Shown in pieces: positions 296 to 40,218 of a DNA stretch of 64,000 bases. Under the pieces are notes generated by a model. That model did not search any database. It was not told where the DNA came from and saw nothing but the letters and a program-made list of their open reading frames with translations. The position numbers and the translations under genes were made by a program. The DNA is from a candidate division WOR-3 bacterium (GTDB lineage Bacteria > Hydrothermota > Tepidihabitantia > SM23-42 > JAOAFX01). How positions within the stretch are numbered: the stretch's first letter is position 1; each line of letters starts with the position of its first letter. The stretch covers positions 31,227 to 95,226 of the forward strand of contig JBDRVV010000004.1 of assembly GCA_039802005.1 (NCBI GenBank). Direction: 5' to 3'.

Positions 296-1426
296 CTATT
301 TCATTACTTCTTTTCTTGAAAAATCTCTCTTCAAAGCAAATTCACTGATGTCGTAAGGGGGTTTTCCGGTTGTGATCAATTCCGCTGTTATGTATCCTAT
401 TTCCGGGCCCAACATAAATCCATGGCCACAAAAACCACCAACTACCCATAATCCTTCAATGTCTGTCTTATCAACGATTGGGTTTCCATCCGGTGTCATC
501 TCATAACTACCTGCCCACTGCCTGATTATCTTCAAATTCTCAAGTTTTGGTATCAACCGCGCCATCCTCCGTCCCATTTCACTTATAAATTCAAAAGATG
601 AACGGACATCCGTTCCTGGCACATTCGGAATCGGTGTATAACATCCAATGATACTGCCCTGTTTTGCTTTTTGATGGAAATAACATCCGTCAGGGCGATA
701 ATCAACAATCATTGGTTTGAAAAAAACTTCTATTGGTTCGGTAATCAAGGATTCATGCCGTTCCGGAAATACCGGAATATCAAGCCCAAGGTGTTTAGAG
801 AATTCCCTTATGAATGGACCTGTTGCATTTACTACAATTGGTGCGTAATATTTTGCATTATCAATTGCAGTAACTGAAACAACCTTATTCCCTTCAACAT
901 TTATTGTCTTAATCTCGCAATGGGTAAATATCTTCCCTTTTTCCTTTATCTTTCTTGCATATCCATCAACTACTAAAAATGGATTTGCCTGACCGTCAGA
1001 TGGGCAGTATGCACCACCAAGTAGACCTTCGGTATTTATGCCCGGAACAATTTCTTTTATTGCTGGCACATCCACATACTCTACATCCAGCCCCATACTT
1101 TTCTGCAATTTTATCAATTGTTTATAGGTCTTTTCTTTCTCTTCGCTGTGCGCCAGAAACAGATACCCATCCTGTTCAAATTCCACATCTACGCCCAGTT
1201 CATATTCCATTACTTTAAATTTCTTTACCGACTCCATCGCCACTTTAATACTCAATTCGGTTGAATACTGCTGTCTTATTCCACCAATACACCTGCCTGT
1301 AGAACCCGCGGTAAGATATTCTTTTTCAAAAAGATAGACCTTTAAACCCTTTTTTGTGAGATAATAACCTGTAGCACAACCGATTATACCACCACCGATT
1401 ATTATGGCATCTGCAGTGTTATTCAT
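296..1426 (-). CDS. FAD-dependent oxidoreductase of the DAO family (sarcosine oxidase beta, glycine oxidase or D-amino acid dehydrogenase-like)
   Basis: 376 aa. It has an N-terminal GxGxxG dinucleotide fold (AIIIGGGIIGCATGYYL) and a C-terminal GHGFMLGP motif typical of SoxB, ThiO or DadA-type flavoenzymes. It is the last gene of the tdh-kbl operon. Confidence 0.75.
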   Translation of the reverse strand: MNNTADAIIIGGGIIGCATGYYLTKKGLKVYLFEKEYLTAGSTGRCIGGIRQQYSTELSIKVAMESVKKFKVMEYELGVDVEFEQDGYLFLAHSEEKEKTYKQLIKLQKSMGLDVEYVDVPAIKEIVPGINTEGLLGGAYCPSDGQANPFLVVDGYARKIKEKGKIFTHCEIKTINVEGNKVVSVTAIDNAKYYAPIVVNATGPFIREFSKHLGLDIPVFPERHESLITEPIEVFFKPMIVDYRPDGCYFHQKAKQGSIIGCYTPIPNVPGTDVRSSFEFISEMGRRMARLIPKLENLKIIRQWAGSYEMTPDGNPIVDKTDIEGLWVVGGFCGHGFMLGPEIGYITAELITTGKPPYDISEFALKRDFSRKEVMK

Positions 1427-1503
1427 TAAAATTTTAAATTTTTAGGTATTTTGGTATTTCCCAAACTTTAGGCATTTTGGACTTTTAGGTATTTAGGCAT
1501 TTT

Positions 1504-2751
1504 TTATAAACCGTACATTGCGACTATTTCGTCTTTCTTCTTTCCGAGAATTTTGTATTTTTCTCCGACCTTTTTAAATGCCTCAATTGCCTTATCAAGA
1601 TGTTCTTTTTCATGGACTGCAGAAATCTGAACCCTTATCCTTGCCTGTCCCTGGGGAACAACCGGGAAGAAAAATCCAACAACATATATACCTTCATCGT
1701 AAAGGTCTCTTGCCATATCCTGCGCAAGTTTTGCATTGTAGAGCATCACCGGTACTATTGGATGGACTCCTTCTTTAATGTCAAATCCTGCCTCTTTCAT
1801 TTTCTGCCTGAAATATTTTGTGTTCTCTTCAAGTTTATCTCTCAATGTGGTTGTGCTGCCAATGATATCCATCACTTTATTTGCCGCAGCAACTACAACC
1901 GGTGGAATTGTATTGGAAAATAAATAAGGACGGGCACGCTGTCTGCACATTTCAACTATCTCTTTGCGTCCACTCACACAACCACCACTTGCACCACCCA
2001 TTGCCTTTCCCAGTGTCGTGGTTATTATATCAATCTTCCCTACAACACCACAGTGCTCATGCGTTCCTCTACCATTCTTACCAAGAAAACCAGTGGCATG
2101 TGAATCGTCCACCATTACCATTGCATCATATTTTTCAGCAAGCTCGCAAATTTTATCAAGTGGTGCAATATCGCCGTCCATAGAAAATACACCATCGGTG
2201 ATAATCATACGGAACCGACAATTTTGTGTTTCCTGAAGTTTTTCTTCAAGATGTGCCATATTCAAATGTTTGTAGTTATATAATTGGGCCTTACAGAGTT
2301 TCATGCCATCAACGATTGAAGCATGAACAAGACGGTCTGCAATCATTGCATCTTCTTTATCAAGAACAACATCAAAAACACCAGCATTGGCATCCATACA
2401 GGATGGGAATAAAACCGTATCTTCAGTTCCTAAAAATTCTGTAAGTTTTTTCTCCAGTTGTCGGTGTATATCCTGGGTTCCGCAAATAAATCGCACCGAA
2501 GACATGCCATAACCACGATTTTCAAGCCCTTCGTGCGCTGCCTTTATAACTTCAGGATGGCTTGAAAGACCAAGATAATTATTCGCGCAGAAATTTAAGA
2601 CTTCCTTGGGTGGTGAACCAGTAGGATATTCAACTTTAATTACTGCCGACTGTGGAGATGCGATATACCTTTCTTCCTTAAATAAACCCTTTTCCCTTAT
2701 TCCCTTCAGTTCATTCGCAAAAAATTCTCTTACTTTATCGCTGAAGGCCAT
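1504..2751 (-). CDS. kbl: Glycine C-acetyltransferase / 2-amino-3-ketobutyrate CoA ligase (Kbl); PLP-dependent alpha-oxoamine synthase
   Basis: 415 aa. It matches Kbl at ortholog level, as recalled from memory: FCANNYLGL, VRFICGTQDIHRQLE, DGVFSMDGD, DDSHATGFLG and the PLP-lysine motif TLGKAMGGASGG. Confidence 0.85.
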   Translation of the reverse strand: MAFSDKVREFFANELKGIREKGLFKEERYIASPQSAVIKVEYPTGSPPKEVLNFCANNYLGLSSHPEVIKAAHEGLENRGYGMSSVRFICGTQDIHRQLEKKLTEFLGTEDTVLFPSCMDANAGVFDVVLDKEDAMIADRLVHASIVDGMKLCKAQLYNYKHLNMAHLEEKLQETQNCRFRMIITDGVFSMDGDIAPLDKICELAEKYDAMVMVDDSHATGFLGKNGRGTHEHCGVVGKIDIITTTLGKAMGGASGGCVSGRKEIVEMCRQRARPYLFSNTIPPVVVAAANKVMDIIGSTTTLRDKLEENTKYFRQKMKEAGFDIKEGVHPIVPVMLYNAKLAQDMARDLYDEGIYVVGFFFPVVPQGQARIRVQISAVHEKEHLDKAIEAFKKVGEKYKILGKKKDEIVAMYGL

Positions 2752-2764
2752 TTAATCCTCCCCA

Positions 2765-3040
2765 TTAACCATCAAGTTTTACAAATTCACCAAGGAGTTT
2801 AATAATGTTATTAACCGTATCAAATGCCTCGGTTGTCGCCTTTTCATCAGGTATCTTTATATTAAATTTTTTCTCAAGGAATGTTTTTAGCGAAACCATT
2901 GAAAAGGAATCAACAATCCCGCTTGATATAAGGGGGGTGTTTTCCGTTATCTCCTGGTCTGAATCCTCATCCAGATACTCTTTTTTCACATAATCTATTA
3001 TTAATTTTTTCAAATCTTCTGCCATTTTTTCCTCCTTCAA
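2765..3040 (-). CDS. Acyl carrier protein (stand-alone, dedicated)
   Basis: 91 aa and acidic. The phosphopantetheine-attachment serine sits in GIVDSFSMVSL. It lies 6 nt downstream of the acyl ligase and 13 nt upstream of kbl. Confidence 0.7.
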   Translation of the reverse strand: MKEEKMAEDLKKLIIDYVKKEYLDEDSDQEITENTPLISSGIVDSFSMVSLKTFLEKKFNIKIPDEKATTEAFDTVNNIIKLLGEFVKLDG

Positions 3041-3046
3041 AAATTT

Positions 3047-4747
3047 TTAATCATTCTCTAATGTTGATATATCACCTATCTCTTCACCCCATTCTTTTGC
3101 CCTTAATAATCTGCGCATTATTTTGCCACTCCTTGTTTTGGGGAGTGAATCCACAAATTCAATCTCTTGTGGCATTGCCAGGGGTGAAAGTTTCTTCCTG
3201 ATAAAGTTCATTATATCAAGTTCAAGTTCATTACTGGGTTTGTATCCGGGTTTTAATGCAACAAATGCTTTTACCACTTCCATATTGACCGGGTCGGGCT
3301 TACCCACCGCTGCTGACTCAGCAACCGCCGGATGTTCAAGTAGTGCAGATTCAATCTCAAATGGTCCGACAAGATGTCCAGCGGTATTTATTACATCATC
3401 ATCCCTTCCCACAAACCAGAAATATCCTTCATTATCAAGGTATGCACGGTCACCACATATATACCAGTTATTTTTAAATTTTTTATCATAAGTCTCTTTA
3501 TTATTCCAGTAAGCCCTCATCATTGATGGCCAGCCAGGTTTTAATGCAATCAATCCGATTGAACCCGGCGTATTTATCGGCTCGTAATTTTTGGGGTCCA
3601 CTACCGTCGCAACAATCCCGGGAAATGCCTTACCCATAGAACCCGGCTTAATCTTCATACCCGGATAATTTGATATAACAATCGCTCCGGTTTCGGTTTG
3701 CCAGTATGAATCATGGAAAGGTAAACCAAATACCTTCTCTGACCAAATGACTGCCTCTGCATTCAATGGTTCACCAACACTTATTAAATGGCGTAAAGAT
3801 TTCAAATTGTATTTCTTCACAATCTCTTCGCCCTCTTTCATTAAAAGTCTGATTGCGGTTGGTGCGGTGTACCATACCGTGACTTTATGTTTCTCAATGA
3901 ATGCATACCATTTTTCGGTGTTGAAACCAATATCATAGACAACCTGGGTGACACCATTTGACCAGGGACCGATTATGCCATAAGAAGTACCTGTTACCCA
4001 TCCGGGGTCTGCGGTACACCAGTATATATCATTCGGTTGAAGGTCCAGGACCCATTTTGCGGTAATGTATTGAGCAATGATAGAAGAATGAACATGCAAT
4101 GCGCCCTTGGGCTTTCCTGTCGTCCCGGAAGTATAATGTAATACCGAGGGGGTCTCTCTATCCGCAGGATAGATATCAAATTTATCCACACGCTGATAAT
4201 CGTCCATACTGAATGCTATTTCTCTCTCTTCAAGGGGCTTTCCTTCATTGTGCAAGACAATAATGTATTTCAATTCCGGAAGTTGTGTTTTAATCTTACG
4301 AACCTTTGACAAATGCTTACGTGTGGTTAAAATTGCGGTTGTCTTAGCATCATCAAGCCTGGTAAACAATGCCTCTTCACCAAATGCCGAAAACAACGGT
4401 TGAACAATAAATCCTGCCTTGAGTATGCCAATAAATGATATGTACAATTCTGGTATGCGATCCATAAAAATACAAACCCGTTCACCTTTTTTTATCCCCA
4501 AGGAAGTCAGGAAATGGGCAAATTTATTGCTGTTTAATCTTATATCTTCGTATGTGAAATGCCTGATTTCGCCGCTAAAACCCTGCCAGATCAATCCTAA
4601 TTTATTGCCCAAACCGAGTTCGCATATCCTATCGCTACAATAATAACCGATGTTATACATTCCGTTTTTGCCAAAATCAAGTTCCTGCTCACTTAATTTC
4701 CAATCAAAATTTTTATATCGTTCATCGTATGAACCAATATTGGACAT
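3047..4747 (-). CDS. AMP-forming acyl-CoA/acyl-ACP synthetase (ANL superfamily)
   Basis: 566 aa. It carries the P-loop-like motif YTSGTTGKPKG, the YGxTE-like motif WQTETGA and the C-terminal GDRAY...GRDDDVINTAG...PKTRSGKIMRR motifs of adenylate-forming ligases. Confidence 0.85.
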   Translation of the reverse strand: MSNIGSYDERYKNFDWKLSEQELDFGKNGMYNIGYYCSDRICELGLGNKLGLIWQGFSGEIRHFTYEDIRLNSNKFAHFLTSLGIKKGERVCIFMDRIPELYISFIGILKAGFIVQPLFSAFGEEALFTRLDDAKTTAILTTRKHLSKVRKIKTQLPELKYIIVLHNEGKPLEEREIAFSMDDYQRVDKFDIYPADRETPSVLHYTSGTTGKPKGALHVHSSIIAQYITAKWVLDLQPNDIYWCTADPGWVTGTSYGIIGPWSNGVTQVVYDIGFNTEKWYAFIEKHKVTVWYTAPTAIRLLMKEGEEIVKKYNLKSLRHLISVGEPLNAEAVIWSEKVFGLPFHDSYWQTETGAIVISNYPGMKIKPGSMGKAFPGIVATVVDPKNYEPINTPGSIGLIALKPGWPSMMRAYWNNKETYDKKFKNNWYICGDRAYLDNEGYFWFVGRDDDVINTAGHLVGPFEIESALLEHPAVAESAAVGKPDPVNMEVVKAFVALKPGYKPSNELELDIMNFIRKKLSPLAMPQEIEFVDSLPKTRSGKIMRRLLRAKEWGEEIGDISTLEND

Positions 4748-4751
4748 TTAA

Positions 4752-5102
4752 TCAACCTCCTGTTTTTTCTTCAATTATTGCAATTCCACAGGCATATTTT
4801 TTTGAATTGCCTGTTCCAATATGTATATAGTTTTTACTATCAGAAATAAATTTTTTAAGTGGCTCGGTCACATTTACTTGTTTGTTCTTCAATTCTATAT
4901 TTTTAAAAAAGAATCCAAAATATAGCCCGATGCCAAGTGCTTTCAAAATCGCTTCTTTGATGCAAAACTTTAAGCCTGCAAATATACGATTTTTTTGAAT
5001 TGATTCCAATTCGCTGGTTGTAAAAATTTGATTAAAAAAATCTTCAGAAACCTTTGAAAACCGGGTCAATTCAATCAGATCAATGCCAATACCCTTTATC
5101 AT
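4752..5102 (-). CDS. acpS: Holo-[acyl-carrier-protein] synthase (4'-phosphopantetheinyl transferase)
   Basis: 116 aa. It has GIGIDLIEL at the N-terminus and the FCIKEAILKALG core typical of AcpS. Spacing to both neighbours is 4 nt. Confidence 0.8.
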   Translation of the reverse strand: MIKGIGIDLIELTRFSKVSEDFFNQIFTTSELESIQKNRIFAGLKFCIKEAILKALGIGLYFGFFFKNIELKNKQVNVTEPLKKFISDSKNYIHIGTGNSKKYACGIAIIEEKTGG

Positions 5103-5106
5103 TATC

Positions 5107-6144
5107 TCAGGGATATAGTAGTATTTTACCGCAATTCCCGCTTTCCATCAATTCCATTCCTTTCTGAAACTCTTCAAGCCGAAAGCGATGGGTAATTATT
5201 GGTTCAAGATCAATTCTTCCTGAGGCAAGAAATCTCGTTGTTTTATACCAGGTTGAGAACATCAATCTTCCATTTATACCTTGTATCGTGAAGTATTTAA
5301 ATACAATCTCCGCAAGATCTATTTTCAAAGGTTTGTCCGGTATCCCCAAGATTGAAAACTGTCCTCCAGGTCTCAAAGCCTTAAGTCCTTCAGCAATTGC
5401 ACTTTGATTGCCCGACATCTCCAGCACAACATCAACACCTTTGCCATTCGTATTTTGCATAATTGTTTCTATGATCTTGTTCTTCTTTGGGTTCAATACA
5501 AGATCCGCCCCGAGTTTTTTAGCAAGATGCAATCTGTATTCATTTACTTCGGTCGCAATGATTTTAGTGGCACCACAGCTTTTACAAACTGCGATAGACA
5601 TCAACCCAATCGGACCACAACCGGTTATCAAAACAGTATTTCCAGCAATCTCACCGGCAAGAACCGTGTGGATTGCGTTACCTAAAGGTTCCATAACCGA
5701 TATATAATCTTTTGGAATTTTATCCTCAATGACCCAGGCATTGTTTGCAGGAACAACAGCATATTCAGCGAATACCCCGTCTATGTCAACACCAAATATC
5801 TTTACATTCTCACAGATATGGGCAAGACCATTGCGGCATAAAAAACAATATCCACAGGCGATATGGGTTTCGGCAGAAATAATGTCGTCTTTCTTTATAT
5901 TCTGAACATTCGCACCAACCTCAACCACCTGACCGCATAATTCGTGACCCATTATTTGAGGTATCTTCCTTATGCGCTTCTGTGCCCAATCATTCCACTG
6001 GAAAATATGAAGGTCTGTCCCGCAGATTGAAGTTGCTAAAACTTTTACCAGGACCTCGTTGGGTCCTGGTGTTGGGACTGGAACATCTAATAATTCTGCA
6101 CCCGGCTCAGATTTTGTCTTAACGACTGCCTTCATTGTTGTCAT
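5107..6144 (-). CDS. tdh: L-threonine 3-dehydrogenase (zinc-dependent MDR family)
   Basis: It matches Tdh at ortholog level: GHE...G catalytic-zinc motif, the CxxCxxC structural-zinc motif CGYCFLCRNG, and a C-terminus FSTWYKTTRFL...PIITHRF...FQKG...GKILL. The ORF track starts at an upstream TTG at 6150. A sigma-70-like promoter (TTGACT-16-TATAAT) in the 29-nt gap after rny places the transcription start near the first ATG, so the mRNA may be leaderless. The exact start is uncertain. Confidence 0.85.
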   Translation of the reverse strand: MTTMKAVVKTKSEPGAELLDVPVPTPGPNEVLVKVLATSICGTDLHIFQWNDWAQKRIRKIPQIMGHELCGQVVEVGANVQNIKKDDIISAETHIACGYCFLCRNGLAHICENVKIFGVDIDGVFAEYAVVPANNAWVIEDKIPKDYISVMEPLGNAIHTVLAGEIAGNTVLITGCGPIGLMSIAVCKSCGATKIIATEVNEYRLHLAKKLGADLVLNPKKNKIIETIMQNTNGKGVDVVLEMSGNQSAIAEGLKALRPGGQFSILGIPDKPLKIDLAEIVFKYFTIQGINGRLMFSTWYKTTRFLASGRIDLEPIITHRFRLEEFQKGMELMESGNCGKILLYP

Positions 6145-6149
6145 AGACA

Positions 6150-6177
6150 ATTATAATAAAAAAATACCCAAAGTCAA
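6150..6177 (-). promoter_or_regulatory. Sigma-70-type promoter (TTGACT-N16-TATAAT) for the tdh-acpS-ligase-acp-kbl operon
   Basis: Read on the minus strand, the rny-tdh gap is aatcTTGACTttgggtatttttttatTATAATtgtctATG. Confidence 0.5.
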
Positions 6178-7769: not shown

Positions 7770-7940
7770 GGGTAATTTCTTTAAAGTCCCCGCGATTGCC
7801 GTGTGGGAAAAAGTCTCTGAACCCAAGGTTAAAGTGGGCGCCTGTCAACTACAGACAAGTCTGTAGCCAAACTTGGCTCCCTAACGATGGGTGTTGGCTC
7901 AAGACTTAATGCCCATCACGAGCATCGCAGGGAACGAATT
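7770..7940 (-). ncRNA. ssrS: Putative 6S RNA (SsrS)
   Basis: The 205-nt gap downstream of zapA is locally GC-rich and non-coding. On the minus strand the 5' segment ttccctgcgatgctcgtgatggg pairs with the 3' segment cccacacggcaatcgcgggga. A second inner pairing (ttaagtcttgagcc with ggttcagagacttttt) surrounds a central bubble and an apical hairpin (ctacagac-aa-gtctgtag). This matches the 6S closing stem, bubble and terminal stem architecture. The zapA-ssrS order is a widely conserved synteny. Ends are approximate. Confidence 0.5.
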
Positions 7941-8241
7941 AAGTAACAGCCTCGTCAATTTTGAGGATTAATGAATTAATCCTCTGTTCTAATTCTGAAA
8001 TTTTTTTATTTAAATGTTCTTCTTTTTGCAAAAATTCATCCACCAGATTCAAACAGGCAAGAACTGCGATCTTGGTGGTTGACGGTAAGGGAAATTCACG
8101 ATGAATATCCCTCATTTTTTTATCAACTATTTCGGCAATCTTCTTAATCCGTTCCTCATCAATATCCTCGGATGTTATTCTGTAGTCATTTCCGAAGATA
8201 TTGACCAACACCTCATTTGTATGACCCTTCTTCAAGTTCAC
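7939..8241 (-). CDS. zapA: Cell division protein ZapA
   Basis: 100 aa. It has the ZapA pattern: an N-terminal beta domain (VNIFGNDYRITSEDIDE) followed by a C-terminal coiled-coil. Confidence 0.7.
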   Translation of the reverse strand: MNLKKGHTNEVLVNIFGNDYRITSEDIDEERIKKIAEIVDKKMRDIHREFPLPSTTKIAVLACLNLVDEFLQKEEHLNKKISELEQRINSLILKIDEAVT

Positions 8242-33728: not shown

Positions 33729-34844
33729 CTATAAAGTGCCTTGATATATTCTATATTTTTTATATAACCTACCACCCATTTTTAAAATTGTATTATTTAC
33801 TGGGTAATTATCCTCAAGGGTCCAGCTCAATTCTCCACTATTGTATCCGAGTTTCATTCCGGCCTTCAAAGTTTCAAGGACCATCAATCCTTCAAGGCCC
33901 AATTTTTGATAATCTTTTTTAACCCCCATTATCATCAATCGAGCCTCCTTAATTTTATTTTTGTAATAGAGAAATTTTATCATTCCAAGGAGGTCTAATT
34001 TACCATTTAGTTTTTTTAGAATAAAGTTATAATTTGGTACAGTTAGAGAAACACCGACCGGAACATTATCAATTTCAACAATTATAACCAATTCGGGGAC
34101 AATGAGATCTTTAAGAGTCTTGGCAATATGAGAGAATTCGGAATCAGTCATTGGTACAAAACCCCAGTTTCTGCTCCAGGCGTCGTTATAGATTTCTTTA
34201 ATCTTTTTCACTTCGTTTGAGAAGTCATCAATATCAACCGGTCTTACCTTTAAATCTCTCACCCTTTTACGAATAAGCGAGCACATTTTTTCTAATCTCT
34301 CAAATGGTGCATTTTTTGCTTCAATATAAAAAGCATATAAATCCTTTGCCTTTGTTAGTCCTGCGGCTTGGGCGAGTTCATGGTAATATTCAAATGTATA
34401 TGTCATCATAATCATCGGCTCTAAGAAATAGCCTTCAAGGAGAAATCCCACCTCTTCATTGGTCGAAGGATTGAATGGACCAACAAATTTAGTCATTCCT
34501 TTTTCTTTATGAAATTCGCGCACGGCATTGAATAATGCCACCGCCGACTCTACATCATCTTCGCACTCAAAGAATCCAAAATATCCAGTCTTCTCATTCC
34601 AGAATTCAATAAAATTGTAATCAACTATTGCACAAACCCTACCAACAACTTCCTTATCGCGATAAACAAGAAACATCTCTCTTTCTGCATGCTCCCAGAA
34701 TGGATAATTTTTCTTATCAAACATATTGTAGACATCTTTTTTTAAAGGTGGAACCCAGTAACGGTTATTTTTGTATAAACGATACGGCAACTCTACAAAA
34801 GACTTTAATTCCTTTTCATCTTTGACCGGAACTACTTTTATCAC
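33729..34844 (-). CDS. Long (371 aa) GNAT-superfamily N-acyltransferase-like protein; candidate bacterial ceramide synthase or N-acyl amino acid synthase
   Basis: 371 aa with no signal peptide. The GNAT assignment rests on length and context; no motif was checked. It overlaps by 4 nt the upstream Spt-like gene. Confidence 0.4.
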   Translation of the reverse strand: MIKVVPVKDEKELKSFVELPYRLYKNNRYWVPPLKKDVYNMFDKKNYPFWEHAEREMFLVYRDKEVVGRVCAIVDYNFIEFWNEKTGYFGFFECEDDVESAVALFNAVREFHKEKGMTKFVGPFNPSTNEEVGFLLEGYFLEPMIMMTYTFEYYHELAQAAGLTKAKDLYAFYIEAKNAPFERLEKMCSLIRKRVRDLKVRPVDIDDFSNEVKKIKEIYNDAWSRNWGFVPMTDSEFSHIAKTLKDLIVPELVIIVEIDNVPVGVSLTVPNYNFILKKLNGKLDLLGMIKFLYYKNKIKEARLMIMGVKKDYQKLGLEGLMVLETLKAGMKLGYNSGELSWTLEDNYPVNNTILKMGGRLYKKYRIYQGTL

Positions 34845-36028
34845 TTTACCAGACCAAATTCTTTAGCGCACCGTCTAAATACATCAAGCACGATATTTAT
34901 ATCTTCGTCTGTATGCGTAGCCATATAACTTGTTCTGATAAGTGCCCTGCCCGGTGGTGTGGCAGGAGAAATAACTGGATTGGCAAATACACCATTTTCA
35001 AAAAGGCTTTTCCAGAAGGCAAAACATTTTTCATCTTCACCGATAATCACGGGGATAACCGGGGTTATGCTCTCACCTGTATCAAGCCCGATATCTTTAA
35101 ATCCCTTTCTCACTCTTTCTGTTACTTCCCAGAGTCTTTTCCGGCGTTCTGGTTCAGTCTTTATTATCTCCAGAGATTTTAACGCACTGGCAACTGATGC
35201 CGGGGTCATACTTGCCGAAAATATGAGTGCGCGGGCAGTATGTCTAATGTGGGTTATCACATCCTTTTCCGCTACGACGAAACCACCAAGTGATGCGAAT
35301 GATTTACTGAATGTACCCATGATTATATCAACTTCATTTAATAAATTGAAGTGTTCACATACACCACGCCCGTGCTCTCCCATCACACCAATGCCATGAG
35401 CATCATCTACAAGCAGCCTCGTGTTAAATTTTTTCTTCAGTTTTACAATCTCCGGTAGATTTATTACATCGCCCTCCATACTGAAAACTCCATCTACCAC
35501 AATCAATTTTCCTTTATTATGGGGTATTGATTTCAATATTCTTTCCAGGTCATTCATATCATTATGTTTAAATTTTTTGACCTCAGCGAATGAAAGTCTA
35601 CAACCATCTATGATGGATGCGTGGTCCTGCCTATCTATGATAATAACATCGTCTTTACCCGCAATCGCAGATATTATTCCGAGGTTAGTTTGAAATCCGG
35701 TTGAAAATACAATTCCATCATCTTTTTCAAAAAAATCGGCGAGCTCTTTTTCAAGTCTGATATGAATATCAAGTGTCCCGTTTAAAAATCTTGAACCAGA
35801 ACAGGTCGAACCATATTTTTGAACCGCTTCAATTGCAGCTCTTTTCAATCTTTCATCTGCAGCAAGTCCAAGATATCCATTGGAACCTATCATAATATAT
35901 TCCCTGCCGTTAATCATTACTCTATGGTCCTGTGCTGATTCAATTGGTGTAAAATAAGGATAAATATTTATACTCTTGGCACGATTTACTGCTTCAACGG
36001 TGGCTTTGCATTTTTTAAATATATCCAT
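34841..36028 (-). CDS. Serine palmitoyltransferase-like alpha-oxoamine synthase (PLP-dependent)
   Basis: 395 aa. The motifs are IGSNGYLGL, GSRFLNGTLD, DGVFSMEGD, DDAHGIG and the PLP-lysine motif GTFSKSFASLGG. The TFSKS form is characteristic of Spt rather than BioF or Kbl. Confidence 0.6.
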   Translation of the reverse strand: MDIFKKCKATVEAVNRAKSINIYPYFTPIESAQDHRVMINGREYIMIGSNGYLGLAADERLKRAAIEAVQKYGSTCSGSRFLNGTLDIHIRLEKELADFFEKDDGIVFSTGFQTNLGIISAIAGKDDVIIIDRQDHASIIDGCRLSFAEVKKFKHNDMNDLERILKSIPHNKGKLIVVDGVFSMEGDVINLPEIVKLKKKFNTRLLVDDAHGIGVMGEHGRGVCEHFNLLNEVDIIMGTFSKSFASLGGFVVAEKDVITHIRHTARALIFSASMTPASVASALKSLEIIKTEPERRKRLWEVTERVRKGFKDIGLDTGESITPVIPVIIGEDEKCFAFWKSLFENGVFANPVISPATPPGRALIRTSYMATHTDEDINIVLDVFRRCAKEFGLVK

Positions 36029-37394: not shown

Positions 37395-38603
37395 CTAATT
37401 GACAAAAATTATCTTTAAATTCTTTAGTTCATTTTCATTCTGTATATGACAGAAATAAATCCCATTTGGCAGGAGAGTATTCGCTTCATCCCTGCCATCC
37501 CAGGCTACAACATATTCTCCAGAGATTTTGAATTCATGCATCAGCCTCCTCACCAGTCTGCCCGATTCATCGTAGATATTTATCTTTACTATTCCGGGTT
37601 TAGATACATAGTAATTGATATTGACTGATTTGTTGAACGGATTCGGCTGAAGGATAAAATTTTTTGTCGCATCCTTGCCTGCTCGGTCAAATTTTTGGTA
37701 TATTGGAATTAAATGGACAGGTTCACCGGGTTTTAAACAGGCAATTGTGCGATTCGGAATTTCAACCCATCTCTGGCTTGATGTATCAAGTGGTTGGGAA
37801 GCAACGACCCAGAAATTGGAAACCAGGGAATCAGGATAATAGTAAACGGTTATTGCCCTTGGTTCTGATTTTGTAAAATTTAATGCCCATAACTTATTAC
37901 CGTCAGACATCACAAAGTTCAATTGCGCATTACTCGTTCCAAGCGCAGAATCGAGTTTAATAACTGCCATCTTAATACATTCCTCAATTGAAAGATCAGG
38001 GTTCATATCTAAAACTTCAATCATTAGTATGGCGAACAAATCAGAATCAAGATAGTTTGGAGCATAATCAGGAGGATTTTGCTCAAGATATAGAGGATTG
38101 ATTGAAGAAATCAATCTTAGTAAAATGTCCGTATTAATTGTACCATTATGGGCAAAGAGTATATCAAAATTTCTTTTAATACATTGTCTCCGAAAAGGAT
38201 GAGGATCAGGAATGCCACCCGTTGGTCCGCTGGAACTCTTACGCACATGGGCAACTGCAGAATTTTTAACATTTCTGAGTAATTCCTTGGTCATTTCTGA
38301 ATATCTGGGGTCAAGTGGTGCAGATGGCTCTCCACGACGGATAACTGGTAAGATTGTATCGCTTTGGGATTCAATAAAATAAGCAATACCCCAACCATCA
38401 GGATTTTTTGCTCCGAGTTTGCGTAAAGAATCAAGGTGGGTTGTGATAATATCACTAATTGCTGGCGTGTTTTCAGACAATATAATACCCCAGAACCTGC
38501 ACTCATGATTTTGTTCCAAATTTTTCCGGCAGGAAATAGTAAAGGATAAAATGATAAATAGAAAAGTAAAATATGGAATATCCTTATTTTTGCATTGGCC
38601 CAT
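37395..38603 (-). CDS. Secreted class-II (Ntn) glutamine amidotransferase-like protein with lipoprotein-type signal and T9SS C-terminal sorting domain
   Basis: 402 aa. A signal peptide and a lipobox-like FTISC precede an Ntn nucleophile context CRFWGII...DGWGIAYF (GATase_6/EgtC-like). The C-terminus ...PNGIYFCHIQNENELKNLKIIFVN is a T9SS sorting domain. Confidence 0.5.
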   Translation of the reverse strand: MGQCKNKDIPYFTFLFIILSFTISCRKNLEQNHECRFWGIILSENTPAISDIITTHLDSLRKLGAKNPDGWGIAYFIESQSDTILPVIRRGEPSAPLDPRYSEMTKELLRNVKNSAVAHVRKSSSGPTGGIPDPHPFRRQCIKRNFDILFAHNGTINTDILLRLISSINPLYLEQNPPDYAPNYLDSDLFAILMIEVLDMNPDLSIEECIKMAVIKLDSALGTSNAQLNFVMSDGNKLWALNFTKSEPRAITVYYYPDSLVSNFWVVASQPLDTSSQRWVEIPNRTIACLKPGEPVHLIPIYQKFDRAGKDATKNFILQPNPFNKSVNINYYVSKPGIVKINIYDESGRLVRRLMHEFKISGEYVVAWDGRDEANTLLPNGIYFCHIQNENELKNLKIIFVN

Positions 38604-38802
38604 ATTTGAATTATATTGATAGAAGATTTGATGTCAACAAAGTAAAATTTCTAAACAAAAATTTGCTATTGGTTAATGGGCATGACTGCCGGTATGGTCT
38701 TTGGACATTGTCATCTGCGTTAAAATTAAAATTTGGCTATTGTTTGGAGTTTGGTGCTTGGGGTTTGGAATTTAACAATTTTTTGGGGCTTGGTTGATTT
38801 GC

Positions 38803-40218
38803 TCATAGTTTTATCACTGATATTATTATCTTTTCTTTAAGATTGTCAGCACAAATAAAATAAATCCCTGGAGGAACTTCATTTGCGTTTTCATCGTTAC
38901 CATCCCAGATAAAATCCACAATTCCTGATTTTTTTGGTGCTAATTTTTTTAATAATCTTCCGTTAATATCATAAATTTTTATATCAGACAGATCCAAATG
39001 TTCTGAAGGAGCAAATTTGATATATAGTTTTTCCCTGAATGGCGAGGGGAATGTTCTTATCTTGATGGGAGATATAGCTTTTTTGCACAATTCCTTAACT
39101 CCCACCGGGTCAGTATATGTCTTAACGAGATAAGCATTATTATCACCAGCACCATAGGAATTGGTTATGCCAGCAATTATGTATCCATTGTCCGATGTTT
39201 TTTTTACTGAATAAGCACAATCTGTGCCTGTACCACCGTAAAGAAACATCCAGAGATTCAACCCAGAAGTATCTGTTCTTACCACATACATTTCATAACT
39301 GAAGTTACCGCCAATTACATAATTATTTTGACCCACTTCCTGAACTGAGAATGCAGTATCGTTATTCAAACTTCCCTGAAACCTACTCCAAATTAATGTT
39401 CCACGCTGGTTATATCTCAAAAGACACCATTCATATCCAAGCAGTGTAAAATATCCAGTTCCACAAACAATATATCCAGAATCTTGAGTCTGTTGAACAC
39501 AGAATCCCTTTTCATCAAGGTAAGAACCATAGAGCCCTGTCCATTCAATGTCTCCCAGCGAATCTATTTTTACAGTGTAAACATCGCTACCACCATTACC
39601 ATAAGAGTATGTTTCGCCCGTTATAATACAGCCATCATCAAATGTGCTGTTCACACAATATGCGTAATCATCCAAATTCCCGCCATAGGTCTTAAACCAG
39701 ATAATATTACCGGTCGAGTCTATTTTTATCAAAAAGACATCGTTATTGCCTGCGCCTGATGAATTTGTTGTTCCACAAATGAGGTATTTATTGTCATAAG
39801 TTTTAACAATTGAATAACCAGATTCTTCAAGTGAGTCTCCATAGGTTTCTGTCCAGATTGAGTCACCATATTCATTTATTTTGATTAAGAATATATCGCC
39901 CATGCCCTGAGTGAATGAATATGTAGTCCCAAGAATCAAATAATTATTATTATCGGTCGGACAGATTGCATAACCATAATCGTCCTGTGAACCACCGAAA
40001 GTTTTTGTCCAAATCGGATAACCCAATGAATCAACTTTAAAAACATAAACATCATATCCACCATTGCCAAAAGAATTTGTTGAGCCCACTGCAATAAATC
40101 CTTTATCTGAACATTCTATAACGGCACGGGCATAATCATCATTGTCACCCCCGTAAATCCTGCCCCATTTAATCTCAGGACTTTGCATTATGAAGATGTT
40201 AAGAAAAATAAAAAACAT
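38803..40218 (-). CDS. Secreted beta-propeller repeat protein with T9SS C-terminal sorting domain
   Basis: 471 aa. Repeats of about 50 aa have the form TNSFGNGGxDVYxxKxDSxGxxxWTKTxGGxxDDYxY. The C-terminus ...PPGIYFICADNLKEKIIISVIKL is a T9SS sorting domain. Confidence 0.5.
   Translation of the reverse strand: MFFIFLNIFIMQSPEIKWGRIYGGDNDDYARAVIECSDKGFIAVGSTNSFGNGGYDVYVFKVDSLGYPIWTKTFGGSQDDYGYAICPTDNNNYLILGTTYSFTQGMGDIFLIKINEYGDSIWTETYGDSLEESGYSIVKTYDNKYLICGTTNSSGAGNNDVFLIKIDSTGNIIWFKTYGGNLDDYAYCVNSTFDDGCIITGETYSYGNGGSDVYTVKIDSLGDIEWTGLYGSYLDEKGFCVQQTQDSGYIVCGTGYFTLLGYEWCLLRYNQRGTLIWSRFQGSLNNDTAFSVQEVGQNNYVIGGNFSYEMYVVRTDTSGLNLWMFLYGGTGTDCAYSVKKTSDNGYIIAGITNSYGAGDNNAYLVKTYTDPVGVKELCKKAISPIKIRTFPSPFREKLYIKFAPSEHLDLSDIKIYDINGRLLKKLAPKKSGIVDFIWDGNDENANEVPPGIYFICADNLKEKIIISVIKL

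Follow-up and report, generated by a model that had tools for sequence, protein, structure and literature searches.

A candidate division WOR-3 bacterium carries, in the 64,000-nucleotide stretch of DNA analyzed here (the window), a set of six minus-strand genes encoding an L-threonine 3-dehydrogenase (Tdh), an AcpS-type 4'-phosphopantetheinyl transferase (PPTase), an adenylate-forming ligase, an acyl carrier protein (ACP), a Kbl-type alpha-oxoamine synthase (hereafter named AOS415) and a DAO-family flavoenzyme. Because this cassette joins Tdh and Kbl to a private ACP, an activating enzyme and an acetate ligase, the carrier of the two-carbon unit is probably a protein arm and not coenzyme A. 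We consider it probable that the locus encodes a self-contained, ATP/AMP+PPi-coupled module interconverting threonine with glycine and acetate, in which acetyl-S-ACP takes the place of acetyl-CoA. If this is true, a protein-bound pantetheine arm stands in for free CoA and insulates the acetyl thioester from the CoA pool of the cell. No description of an ACP-linked Tdh/Kbl arrangement was found in the full-text literature or curated families searched, and public annotations label the cassette proteins plainly as Kbl, Acs and ACP.

Organization of the locus

The six genes, which a preliminary description had placed 4 to 77 nt apart behind a single promoter, are all present as open reading frames (Table 1). 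From tdh to the DAO gene, the intergenic gaps measure 4, 4, 21 (6 if the ACP starts from TTG), 13 and 77 nt. The true start of the ACP is the ATG at 3025, 5 nt past an AAGGAGG Shine-Dalgarno sequence, and that of tdh is likely the ATG at 6144 or 6135. The promoter-like site ahead of tdh bears out the earlier claim, its hexamers and T-rich spacer being invariant in five related WOR-3 MAGs despite differing upstream gene ends. Since an ATG lies only 6 nt past the -10 element, the transcript would have little or no leader. An RNase Y gene on the same strand stops just 29 nt upstream of the operon, so read-through from it may also occur. The six genes are presumably co-transcribed; the only terminator-like site on the minus strand inside the operon lies within the DAO reading frame. 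The repeat-containing spacer between the AOS415 and DAO genes may have a regulatory or promoter function within the operon. Riboswitches and leaders, including a threonine-responsive leader, were looked for at the locus and none was found.

Table 1. Features of the six-gene locus (positions in the window)
Feature	Position	Strand	Details
sigma-70-type promoter-like site	6150..6177	-	TTGACT-16 nt-TATAAT, 11/12 matches
L-threonine 3-dehydrogenase (Tdh)	5107..6135	-	ORF 5107-6150; TIGR00692 483.7 vs 458; NF003808 478 vs 380
AcpS-type PPTase, 116 aa, pI 9.3	4752..5102	-	PF01648 51.1 vs 25; TIGR00556 47.6 vs 45.35
Acs-derived adenylate-forming ligase, 566 aa, proposed acetate:ACP ligase	3047..4747	-	PF00501+PF13193; NF003313 794.9 (cut-off 729)
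Stand-alone carrier protein (ACP), 86 aa, pI 4.5	2765..3025	-	ORF 2765-3040, opening at TTG; PF00550 24.4 vs 20.8
Kbl-type alpha-oxoamine synthase AOS415	1504..2751	-	TIGR01822 632.8 vs 493
A+T-rich AOS/DAO spacer, 77 nt	1427..1503		three TTTAGG(C/T)ATTTT copies, 25-26 nt apart
DAO-family FAD amine/amino-acid dehydrogenase/oxidase, 376 aa	296..1426	-	PF01266 236 bits

Conservation of the cassette and features of its proteins

Gene-neighborhood analysis, proposed in the preliminary description, identified 80 cassette loci from at least 10 phyla, mostly of uncultured bacteria. The loci were drawn from WOR-3, Stahlbacteria, Ignavibacteria/Chlorobi-like bacteria, Bacteroidota, Zixibacteria and Eisenbacteria, and also from Acidobacteriota (including Aminicenantes), Fermentibacteria, Riflebacteria, Planctomycetota, Chromatiales and Clostridia MAGs. 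The ACP gene was followed by that of AOS415 in 68 of 69 loci and preceded by the ligase gene in 66 of 73, on a shared strand and with median gaps of 22 nt (ACP-AOS415) and 63 nt (ligase-ACP). Since 66-68 of about 70 informative loci show this order, the arrangement lies far beyond chance, and the insertion of PPTase, ligase and ACP genes between tdh and kbl stands as a real functional unit. The near-constant adjacency also makes AOS415 very probably the partner of the ACP, as had been suggested. Pairwise identities of AOS415, ligase and ACP co-vary (r = 0.74-0.81), which would fit inheritance as a single unit.

As a point against the module proposed below, only around half of the loci have PPTase and Tdh genes next to the cassette (a PPTase was detected by tblastn in 34 of 63). 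In its favor, the Tdh genes recruited beside the cassette come from at least four different lineages. The DAO gene, found in 19 loci of WOR-3 and Stahlbacteria only, is a lineage-specific accessory. No other neighboring gene, including any alternative ACP client or acetyl-ACP consumer, recurred in the 80 loci, and the cassette can thus be regarded as self-contained. In complete WOR-3 chromosomes, S9 peptidase and flavodoxin genes are located upstream of tdh; Pst/PhoU genes adjoin the cassette in Zixibacteria and Eisenbacteria.

The ortholog-level assignment of tdh and kbl was confirmed, as were the families named for the PPTase, ligase, ACP and DAO proteins (Table 1). AOS415 retains the PLP lysine (Lys249) and the stacking His143, and shares approximately 55-60% identity with solved Kbls. 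Among the clades considered for this 415-aa protein, placement within Kbl held, in a distinct, near-monophyletic and highly conserved subclade; serine palmitoyltransferase models gave 241-334 bits against cut-offs of 500-670, and scores were below the BioF and CqsA cut-offs, far below in the case of CqsA. The subclade is marked by LVHASIVDG (Asn to Val), SCMDAN (Phe to Met) and a 3-residue insertion near residues 43-48, the substitutions adjoining the PLP-stacking His. It is further distinguished by a unique, conserved and Lys-rich C-terminal tail, ILGKKKxEIIxxYGL, of about 14-15 residues (401-415; coordinates 1507-1551), for which the AF2 model (pLDDT 86) predicts a helix at 406-413 (>90). 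Fold matches include the cysteate acyl-ACP transferase 7u7h, the BioF-ACP crosslink 8dle and 2x8u; sister oxoamine synthases such as E. coli BioF use acyl-ACP. Ignavibacteria and Bacteroidota encode AOS415 and a canonical 403-aa Kbl in tandem, so neither enzyme duplicates the other.

The ACP carries its phosphopantetheine serine, Ser40, in the motif VDSFSMV (codon 2906-2908) and reached the cut-off of no NCBIfam model. It has 5832 relatives, the best 120 of which are all at least 80% identical, and its nearest solved chains are 6cxt, PltL and DltC. It resembles ligase-loaded type II carriers (PltL, DltC) and not the fatty acid synthase (FAS) AcpP. Across the phyla, conservation of its helix II/III core is 90% or higher, as would be expected of a carrier docking with three partners. 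The PPTase retains the GIGIDx and KEAxxKAxG motifs and scores under the acpS equivalog cut-offs.

The ligase is a Bacillus-type acetyl-CoA synthetase homologue that matches the 572-aa AcsA (PDB 9g79) at 587 bits. Its acetate pocket is complete (V251, T252, V324, W349), and the corresponding S. enterica Acs residues V310, T311, V386 and W414 are kept in 100% of 58 family members; a medium-chain clade from the same search has Gly at position 414, where Trp shuts the Acs pocket to acyl groups above about C2-C3. Acetate therefore appears to be the type of substrate, and a long-chain acyl role is not supported. K609 and the CoA 3'-phosphate contact R584 (S. enterica numbering) are conserved in 98-100% of the family. 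Leu459 (codon 3371-3373) occupies the position of Acs Arg526, a residue reportedly required for the CoA step (PMC10455477); this position is Leu in 98% of the family and invariantly Arg in three reference Acs. Leu526 marks one ligase clade, two other sampled branches of which adjoin a PP-binding carrier and an MBOAT protein (plus a GDSL/DUF1574 protein) in a Dlt-like layout. It is not exclusive to carrier-linked ligases: two Leu-type representatives lie beside 2-oxoacid dehydrogenase E1 genes and one in a polysaccharide cluster, and an ACP is visible near none of the three.

The 347-aa dehydrogenase is assigned to Tdh by its scores (Table 1) and has catalytic Cys38/His64/Glu65, a structural CxxCxxCx7C zinc site and GCGPIG; the acidic Glu closing beta-2 points to NAD(H) as the probable cofactor. 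The DAO enzyme falls under the cut-offs for soxB (158 vs 529) and ThiO (116 vs 251), and its best solved relative is 1y56_B (229 bits), which we take to be the L-proline dehydrogenase beta subunit.

Proposed pathway and alternative readings

In the proposed module, the small PPTase would modify Ser40 of the private apo-ACP to give holo-ACP. The ligase would catalyze acetate + ATP + holo-ACP <-> acetyl-S-ACP + AMP + PPi, AOS415 would catalyze acetyl-S-ACP + glycine <-> 2-amino-3-oxobutanoate + holo-ACP, and Tdh would interconvert 2-amino-3-oxobutanoate + NADH and L-threonine + NAD+. The net reaction of this closed cycle would be threonine + NAD+ + AMP + PPi <-> glycine + acetate + NADH + ATP. 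We infer both the role of the ACP as thiol substrate of the ligase and AOS415 and the direction of flux. For the WOR-3 operon we lean slightly, and tentatively, towards catabolism, in view of the DAO gene in the operon and the peptidase and flavodoxin genes upstream of tdh. Peptide-derived threonine would be converted to glycine and acetate, the reversed ligase would conserve the thioester as ATP, and the DAO enzyme would oxidize glycine or another amine. A point against catabolism is that every characterized ligase-carrier pair known to us consumes ATP to load the carrier; a point against biosynthesis is that Tdh/Kbl is classically catabolic.

It is possible, and only slightly less likely than the catabolic reading, that the same machinery makes L-threonine from acetate and glycine: the ligase would spend ATP to keep the private ACP acetylated, AOS415 would condense the acetyl group with glycine and Tdh would reduce the product, the ATP-clamped thioester pool being independent of the acetyl-CoA/CoA ratio. 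Other carrier-linked members of the ligase's clade must be loaders, and the ACP-using oxoamine synthases, to our knowledge, all work in the condensing direction. A rough estimate puts the Tdh/Kbl pair close to equilibrium, and Marcus and Dekker (1993) reportedly found it capable of threonine formation in E. coli. A constitutive housekeeping role would also suit the strong promoter and the Shine-Dalgarno sites. However, such a route would putatively duplicate the aspartate pathway and would be needless for synthesis where a canonical Kbl lies in tandem; moreover, in WOR-3 the oxidative DAO gene and the nearby peptidase suggest catabolism, and the search for a threonine-responsive leader was negative.

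Passing CoA-enzyme equivalog thresholds, AOS415 and the ligase could retain plain Kbl and Acs activity. The ACP and PPTase would then either serve an enzyme encoded elsewhere or have a non-substrate role with the synthase, as a subunit or as a regulator. The conserved R584 and K609, and the presence of Leu526 in ligases without a nearby ACP, are compatible with this reading, which we consider unlikely: ACP-AOS415 adjacency is near-invariant, the three proteins co-vary, AOS415 has its own signature and tail beside a canonical Kbl, no other ACP client recurs, and a dedicated PPTase argues for a pantetheine arm in use. Less likely still is a supply module, in which acetyl-S-ACP made from threonine by Tdh and AOS415, and from acetate by the ligase, is used by an unlinked enzyme such as an acetyltransferase or a condensing enzyme. 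Every enzyme would then work in its textbook direction, and sister ligases feed carriers that pass acyl groups to MBOAT transferases, but a candidate consumer is conserved beside the cassette in none of the phyla and the ACP is unlike FAS AcpP.

The preliminary description had suggested an acyl-ACP substrate, taken here as a long- or medium-chain acid loaded on the ACP. Its condensation with an amino acid would yield an aminolipid, a sphingoid-like base or an alpha-hydroxyketone signal, with the MDR dehydrogenase as ketoreductase. Clusters of oxoamine synthase, ACP and ligase do occur in bacterial sphingolipid synthesis, and the Pst/PhoU neighbors could hint at phosphate-sparing lipids. The acetate-type ligase pocket with its invariant Trp414, the Kbl-clade synthase and the adjoining dehydrogenases, which are Tdh or Tdh-like and score best as Tdh, make this very improbable. 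The Spt-like enzyme 30 kb away, also put forward as the ACP user, has a GNAT-domain protein as its own partner, and no link between it and the ACP was found. A chance fusion of threonine catabolism with lipid-activation genes in one genome, for which the unusual gene mix is the sole argument, is refuted by the order and strand shared across phyla.

Comparison with known systems

As in the E. coli-type kbl-tdh operon, both enzymes pass their equivalog cut-offs, keep their catalytic residues and are encoded in one operon. Here, PPTase, Acs-type ligase and ACP genes sit between tdh and kbl, the synthase belongs to a separate Kbl subclade, and the proposed thiol substrate is holo-ACP instead of CoA. 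Delivery of a carrier-borne thioester to a PLP synthase would be shared with the acyl-ACP oxoamine synthases (BioF with pimeloyl-ACP, SulA 7u7h and bacterial Spt); in the sphingolipid clusters of Sphingomonas wittichii and Caulobacter, a dedicated ACP and ACP synthetase lie beside Spt. The acyl chains used by those enzymes are long or dicarboxylic, and the amino acid is decarboxylated in the reaction, whereas an acetyl group and a non-decarboxylating, reversible Kbl-clade enzyme are proposed for the cassette.

In DltA-DltC, a stand-alone adenylate-forming ligase loads a type II carrier of about 80 aa, as proposed here, and the Dlt-like cassettes contain ligases of the same Leu526 clade. The client of DltC is a membrane O-acyltransferase, and that of the cassette ACP would be a cytoplasmic Kbl-type synthase; unlike DltA, the ligase is Acs-like and keeps Trp414. 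Citrate lyase and malonate decarboxylase, with their acetyl-S-ACP, are alike in concept only: each has a private ACP whose acetyl thioester takes part in central C-C cleavage, together with its own ATP-dependent acetate:SH-ACP ligase (CitC, MadH) and its own transferase for the prosthetic group. That group is a phosphoribosyl-dephospho-CoA derivative and not 4'-phosphopantetheine, and the protein families are presumably unrelated to those of the cassette, with no sequence similarity expected. Finally, the AMP-forming Acs1 of Syntrophus aciditrophicus, which is reversed to make ATP (PMC4992975, PMC13404658), provides a precedent for the ATP-forming direction of the catabolic reading. Acs1 is a long-type, acetyl-CoA-using enzyme with its bias set by a CoA-binding loop, whereas the cassette ligase, a short-type enzyme without the E-G-x-R loop consensus, would have a protein-bound thioester as its substrate.

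Layout and conservation of the cassette

Six minus-strand ORFs form the cassette, in the order tdh, PPTase, ligase, acyl carrier protein (ACP), Kbl-type alpha-oxoamine synthase (415 aa, hereafter AOS415) and DAO flavoenzyme. The intergenic gaps measured 4, 4, 21, 13 and 77 nt, in agreement with the tight spacing given in the preliminary description. The ACP gene starts at the ATG at 3025, with an AAGGAGG Shine-Dalgarno site 5 nt before it, and the synthase gene is preceded by a GGGGAGG site. The hexamers of the promoter-like element in front of tdh are kept even in one of the five related MAGs whose upstream sequence is otherwise unalignable. The internal genes have strong Shine-Dalgarno sites and tdh has none; given the short distance between its ATG and the -10 element, translation of tdh may start on a leaderless mRNA. 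Upstream of the operon come first the RNase Y gene, whose end is 29 nt away, and then 6S RNA, zapA, pheST, infC and thrS, the ZapA-6S arrangement being known from other bacteria. Searches of the window and 10 diverse loci with Rfam at gathering thresholds matched 6S RNA and tRNAs only, and no riboswitch, T-box or leader that would show the direction of flux. In the spacer that separates the synthase gene from the DAO gene, TTTAGG(C/T)ATTTT occurs three times with a period of 25-26 nt, alongside an A/T palindrome; the spacer may serve as an operator or as an internal promoter driving the DAO gene.

Coordinates of the features discussed, in the window or, where a locus is named, in that related locus
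Feature	Position	Strand	Remarks
Six-gene cassette	296-6177	-	
Promoter-like TTGACT-16-TATAAT	6177-6150	-	hexamers and T-rich spacer invariant in five related MAGs
tdh start	6135-6150	-	ATG 6 nt past the -10 hexamer, no Shine-Dalgarno site
Ligase (566 aa)	3047-4747	-	
ACP (86 aa)	2765-3025	-	
AOS415	1504-2751	-	
Synthase-DAO spacer (77 nt)	1427-1503		
6S RNA gene	7783-7936	-	73 bits, gathering score 46; between zapA (7939-8241) and the RNase Y gene
Second oxoamine synthase (395 aa) and 371-aa partner	33729-36028	-	560 bits on the CFB-type serine palmitoyltransferase model, cut-off 640
Two FlgD-Ig and Por_Secre_tail proteins	37395-40218	-	type IX secretion sorting; one with a class-II glutamine amidotransferase domain
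AOS415-type and canonical Kbl in tandem	L033 7265-9796		
pstSCAB (Eisenbacteria)	L004 9543-13042		
S9 peptidase and flavodoxin (WOR-3)	L001 2191-4776		
Ligase, PP-binding protein and MBOAT	L087 5001-6890, 9109-10524		
Ligase, PP-binding protein and MBOAT	L088 129-4630		
Ligase and E1 alpha + beta	L094 1893-4657		
Ligase and E1 alpha + beta	L096 244-3976		

An ACP scan of one genome per species yielded at least 234 relatives, and the cassette is present in no fewer than 234 species-level genomes. The best 80 loci, all from MAGs, were analysed. They come from WOR-3, Stahlbacteria, Ignavibacteria/Chlorobi-like bacteria, Bacteroidota, Zixibacteria, Eisenbacteria, Acidobacteriota (Terriglobia, Thermoanaerobaculia and Aminicenantes), Fermentibacteria, Riflebacteria, Planctomycetota, Chromatiales and Clostridia MAGs. 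A database search with the ACP returned 5832 relatives, the best 120 of which are all at least 80% identical, and MAGs of candidate division WOR-3 encode proteins with 100% identity to it. A 415-aa synthase (at least 66% identical) directly follows the ACP in 68 of the 69 loci with enough downstream sequence, and the ligase directly precedes it in 66 of 73. PPTase and Tdh-like genes were found upstream in 34 and 30 of 63 loci, respectively, and three ACP homologues looked up independently showed the identical layout. The insertion of ligase and ACP beside the synthase recurs across these loci, and the chance operon fusion that had been kept as an alternative is excluded by these counts. Clustering of all ORFs of 81 loci, with an ORF caller that is crude in high-G+C loci, revealed no further recurrent neighbour beyond the six genes; Pst/PhoU, PhoH, TGT, pilus and ApbC neighbours are lineage-specific.

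Mean identity between phyla is 78% for the synthase, 75% for the ligase and 74% for the ACP, and the pairwise identities of the three proteins are correlated (r = 0.74-0.81). Such high identities between phyla are in keeping with a strongly constrained unit, and one that probably moves horizontally as well. Of note, pstSCAB adjoin the cassette on the same strand in Zixibacteria (L045 and L050, with phoU too) and in Eisenbacteria; one phylum has them in front of the ligase and the other behind the synthase. This adjacency may point to a link with phosphate or PPi status, or may be a coincidence. In complete WOR-3 chromosomes (L001, L018, L061 and L071), genes for an S9 prolyl-oligopeptidase-family protein and a flavodoxin stand directly upstream of tdh, in place of RNase Y, and the DAO enzyme could pass its electrons to this flavodoxin.

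The oxoamine synthase, Tdh and the flavoenzyme

AOS415 is of the Kbl type, exceeding both Kbl equivalog cut-offs (TIGR01822, 632.8 vs 493; NF005394, 613.8 vs 460). It shares 55-60% identity with solved Kbls, the PLP-site residues are all present, and K249 (PLP), H143 (stacking), D215/D216 and H218 (DDSHA motif) are invariant in the AOS415 alignment and match the E. coli Kbl motifs. In a neighbour-joining tree (all trees here are of this kind, with modest samples), 61 ACP-linked synthases did not group with 20 canonical Kbls, four of them solved, and formed a separate clade beside them. On average, the ACP-linked synthases share 76% identity with one another and 58% with canonical Kbls, which average 60% among themselves. 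The two groups can be told apart at 11 positions, some of them in the C-terminal tail. Compared with canonical Kbls, the AOS415 clade carries Val for Asn directly in front of the PLP-stacking His and Met for Phe in the SCFDAN loop; two Tyr are replaced by Phe, one Ser by Ala and one Ala by Val. Typical of the clade, too, are an insertion of three residues near 43-48 and a 14-residue tail (ILGKKKxEIIxxYGL) absent from canonical Kbls. The confident AF2 model of AOS415 (pLDDT 86) matches Kbls best in fold and predicts a helix for the tail (residues 406-413, pLDDT above 90).

In L033 and about 18 other Ignavibacteria, Bacteroidota and Aminicenantes loci, the AOS415-type gene is directly followed by one for a canonical 403-aa Kbl. 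Each paralogue scores about 611 bits with TIGR01822, and the pair shares 60-65% identity; encoded in tandem, the two enzymes are therefore not redundant. The genomic context points to an ACP-bound thioester as the substrate of AOS415, instead of acetyl-CoA/CoA. Membership of a bacterial sphingolipid cluster (Spt, ACP and ACP synthetase) failed: AOS415 scores 241-334 bits against serine palmitoyltransferase models with cut-offs of 500-670, and the pocket of the ligase, which would have to be long-chain specific, is closed by Trp414. No ACP link was found for the Spt-like synthase elsewhere in the window, which has its own partner: its gene overlaps by 4 nt that of a 371-aa protein with a C-terminal GNAT domain. 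This 395-aa synthase is 32% identical to the Kbl-type enzyme. Its pairing with the GNAT protein recalls, in our view, bacterial Spt plus ceramide synthase, and by this analogy WOR-3 may make a sphingolipid-like lipid. The FlgD-Ig proteins encoded at 37395-40218 carry sorting domains that indicate a T9SS cargo system in the WOR-3 genome.

The assignment of tdh held: the protein exceeds TIGR00692 (483.7 vs 458.35), and its translation has C38, H64/E65, the structural zinc ligands CxxCxxCx7C and an NAD-type GCGPIG...ATE Rossmann motif. Every MDR gene adjoining a cassette scores best as Tdh, which speaks against the ketoreductase role suggested for the MDR enzyme. These adjacent genes belong to several lineages: a WOR-3/Stahlbacteria type (72-94% identical, above the cut-off), an E. 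coli-like type (L046, 584 bits), the type found in L048 (413 vs a cut-off of 380), a 371-aa type just below the cut-off (343-351 bits) and a 409-aa type with the N-terminal third changed (272-274 bits). Different Tdh lineages have been recruited repeatedly, an argument for 2-amino-3-oxobutanoate as the metabolite that the cassette enzymes share. As for the flavoenzyme, described previously as glycine/sarcosine-oxidase-like, only its place in the DAO superfamily is secure; it fails the ThiO (116.4 vs 250.8) and soxB (158.2 vs 529) models, and its best solved relative is 1y56_B (229 bits), which we take to be the beta subunit of an archaeal L-proline dehydrogenase.

Carrier protein, PPTase and ligase

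The ACP passes PF00550 (24.4 vs 20.8) and reaches no NCBIfam cut-off, failing the AcpP model TIGR00517 (29.2 vs 70.45). Its attachment motif VDSFSMV places Asp-Ser where helix II begins and is conserved to 90% or more. The nearest solved carriers (6cxt, PltL and DltC) are ligase-loaded type II carriers, not AcpP. An ornithine-lipid ACP for OlsHI (NF052616), a system that belongs to a planctomycete GH3-type pathway (PMC12493201), was considered and rejected (59.1 vs 130). For the PPTase, the AcpS-type domain (PF01648, 51.1 vs 25; TIGR00556, 47.6 vs 45.35) and the motifs GIGIDx (metal-binding Asp) and KEAxxKAxG (Glu-x3-Lys), conserved in 42 sequences, bear out the original assignment. A housekeeping role is not borne out, as the protein falls below all housekeeping AcpS equivalogs (holo-ACP synthase TIGR00516, 48.1 vs 59.8). 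With 28-40% identity between phyla, it represents a divergent, cassette-specific lineage.

The ligase exceeds the acetate--CoA ligase equivalog of the Bacillus AcsA type (NF003313/PRK04319, 794.9 vs 729) and matches the 572-aa AcsA of PDB 9g79 with 587 bits. Residues V310, T311, V386 and W414 of the S. enterica Acs acetate pocket, as well as K609 and R584, are kept in 98-100% of 58 family members; position 414 is Gly in a medium-chain clade from the same representative search. Since the acetate pocket is intact, a long-chain substrate is very unlikely. Three conserved arginines of S. enterica Acs, R191, R526 and R584, are described as critical for the CoA-dependent step (PMC10455477). Arg526 is invariant in three reference Acs and is Leu in 98% of the ligase family (n = 58). 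R191 is unconserved in the family, at a position where the alignment is uncertain and B. subtilis AcsA also differs. The three arginines are therefore not all retained, R526 being lost and R584 kept. This fits a changed thiol acceptor and is not proof of one; we infer that the acceptor is the ACP rather than free CoA. An argument from the loop consensus of the ligase was dropped, as the short-type B. subtilis AcsA is without this consensus too.

Ligase relatives were sought among 1.8 billion cluster representatives and placed in a neighbour-joining tree. Leu, rarely Met or Phe, at position 526 marks one clade that holds the cassette ligases; Arg526 is kept in the Bacillus-type AcsA, long Acs and Macs-type clades. 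As a clean marker of ACP loading, Leu526 succeeded only in part: two more branches are carrier-linked, but two Leu-type representatives adjoin E1 dehydrogenase genes and one lies in a polysaccharide cluster. A carrier was absent near both informative Arg-type controls (n = 2), and two other controls are on short contigs; the neighbourhood sample is small and such controls are few. The carrier-linked ligases of L087 and L088 (W414F) stand beside a 77-79-aa PP-binding protein and an MBOAT protein, together with a 38-aa ORF and a GDSL/DUF1574 protein in L088. These loci are putative Dlt-like envelope-acylation cassettes with an Acs-type enzyme in DltA's place. In L094 and L096, the Leu526-type ligase is the first gene of an operon encoding E1 alpha and beta subunits of a 2-oxoacid dehydrogenase of the acetoin or pyruvate type. 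The representative search also returned a 949-aa Acs-like ligase (P0242) with an insertion of about 380 residues that splits the conserved YWCTADPGW motif, ends in HNC and looks like an intein.

A candidate acetyl-ACP cycle and its relation to known systems

In the mechanism that we propose, the PPTase would make holo-ACP and the ligase would interconvert acetate, ATP and holo-ACP with acetyl-S-ACP, AMP and PPi. AOS415 would interconvert acetyl-S-ACP and glycine with 2-amino-3-oxobutanoate and holo-ACP, and Tdh would join 2-amino-3-oxobutanoate to threonine. Such a closed cycle would be the simplest model to use every conserved part and nothing else. Sequence comparison, the source of all the evidence, shows the gene content, the clade placement and the residues; that the ACP is the substrate, and in which direction the flux runs, we infer. 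Its acetyl-ACP core seems to us fairly probable. By our own rough thermodynamic estimate, the reaction of threonine, NAD+ and a thiol to glycine, an acetyl thioester and NADH is near equilibrium, so a private carrier pool could serve either direction.

Within the acetyl-ACP core, a catabolic direction is tentatively put first. Tdh and Kbl are classically catabolic, and this direction would agree with the oxidative DAO gene in the operon, the S9 peptidase and flavodoxin upstream in WOR-3 chromosomes and the canonical Kbl in tandem. A precedent for a reversed Acs exists in Syntrophus (PMC4992975, PMC13404658). The cassette could then be a self-contained, horizontally spread energy module of anaerobic peptide degraders, in which threonine would give glycine and acetyl-S-ACP, and the reversed ligase would use AMP and PPi to yield acetate and ATP; we regard this as a rather unlikely scenario. 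We know of no earlier case of substrate-level phosphorylation from a carrier-protein thioester, or of a central acetyl unit in catabolism being held apart from the CoA pool. Flux towards threonine, again given acetyl-ACP, is a little more doubtful than catabolism. It would match the carrier-linked sister ligases, which must be loaders; to our knowledge, the ligase-carrier pairs described so far all work as loaders and the ACP-using oxoamine synthases as condensing enzymes. That acetyl-ACP is supplied to an unlinked consumer appears improbable.

If the acetyl-ACP reading is correct, a textbook two-enzyme pathway has a protein-tethered variant with acetyl-S-ACP in the place of acetyl-CoA, which would have escaped notice, every part scoring above the annotation threshold set for its ordinary relative. 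Public records label the cassette proteins plain glycine C-acetyltransferase and acyl carrier protein, NCBIfam holds no model specific to the cassette, and a full-text literature search found no description of tdh/kbl with an ACP. Many cassette proteins annotated as plain Kbl and acetate--CoA ligase would then be mis-assigned as to substrate. Lineages dominant in anoxic sediments and bioreactors carry the cassette (WOR-3, Zixibacteria, Ignavibacteria, Aminicenantes, Eisenbacteria and Acidobacteriota), and the finding would therefore affect metabolic reconstructions of uncultured heterotrophs in terms of threonine, glycine and acetate flux and ATP yield. It would also define an Acs-like clade that may act on protein-bound thiols, and provide a compact five-gene system, tractable in E. 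coli, in which the reason for insulating one acetyl thioester from the CoA pool becomes testable.

Closest among known systems are the kbl-tdh operon, the ACP-using oxoamine synthases (BioF, SulA and bacterial Spt with ACP and ligase), the ligase-carrier pairs of the Dlt type and, in terms of concept, citrate lyase and malonate decarboxylase with their acetyl-ACP. Unlike any of these, the cassette combines a Kbl-clade enzyme with Tdh, an Acs-type ligase and a private ACP.
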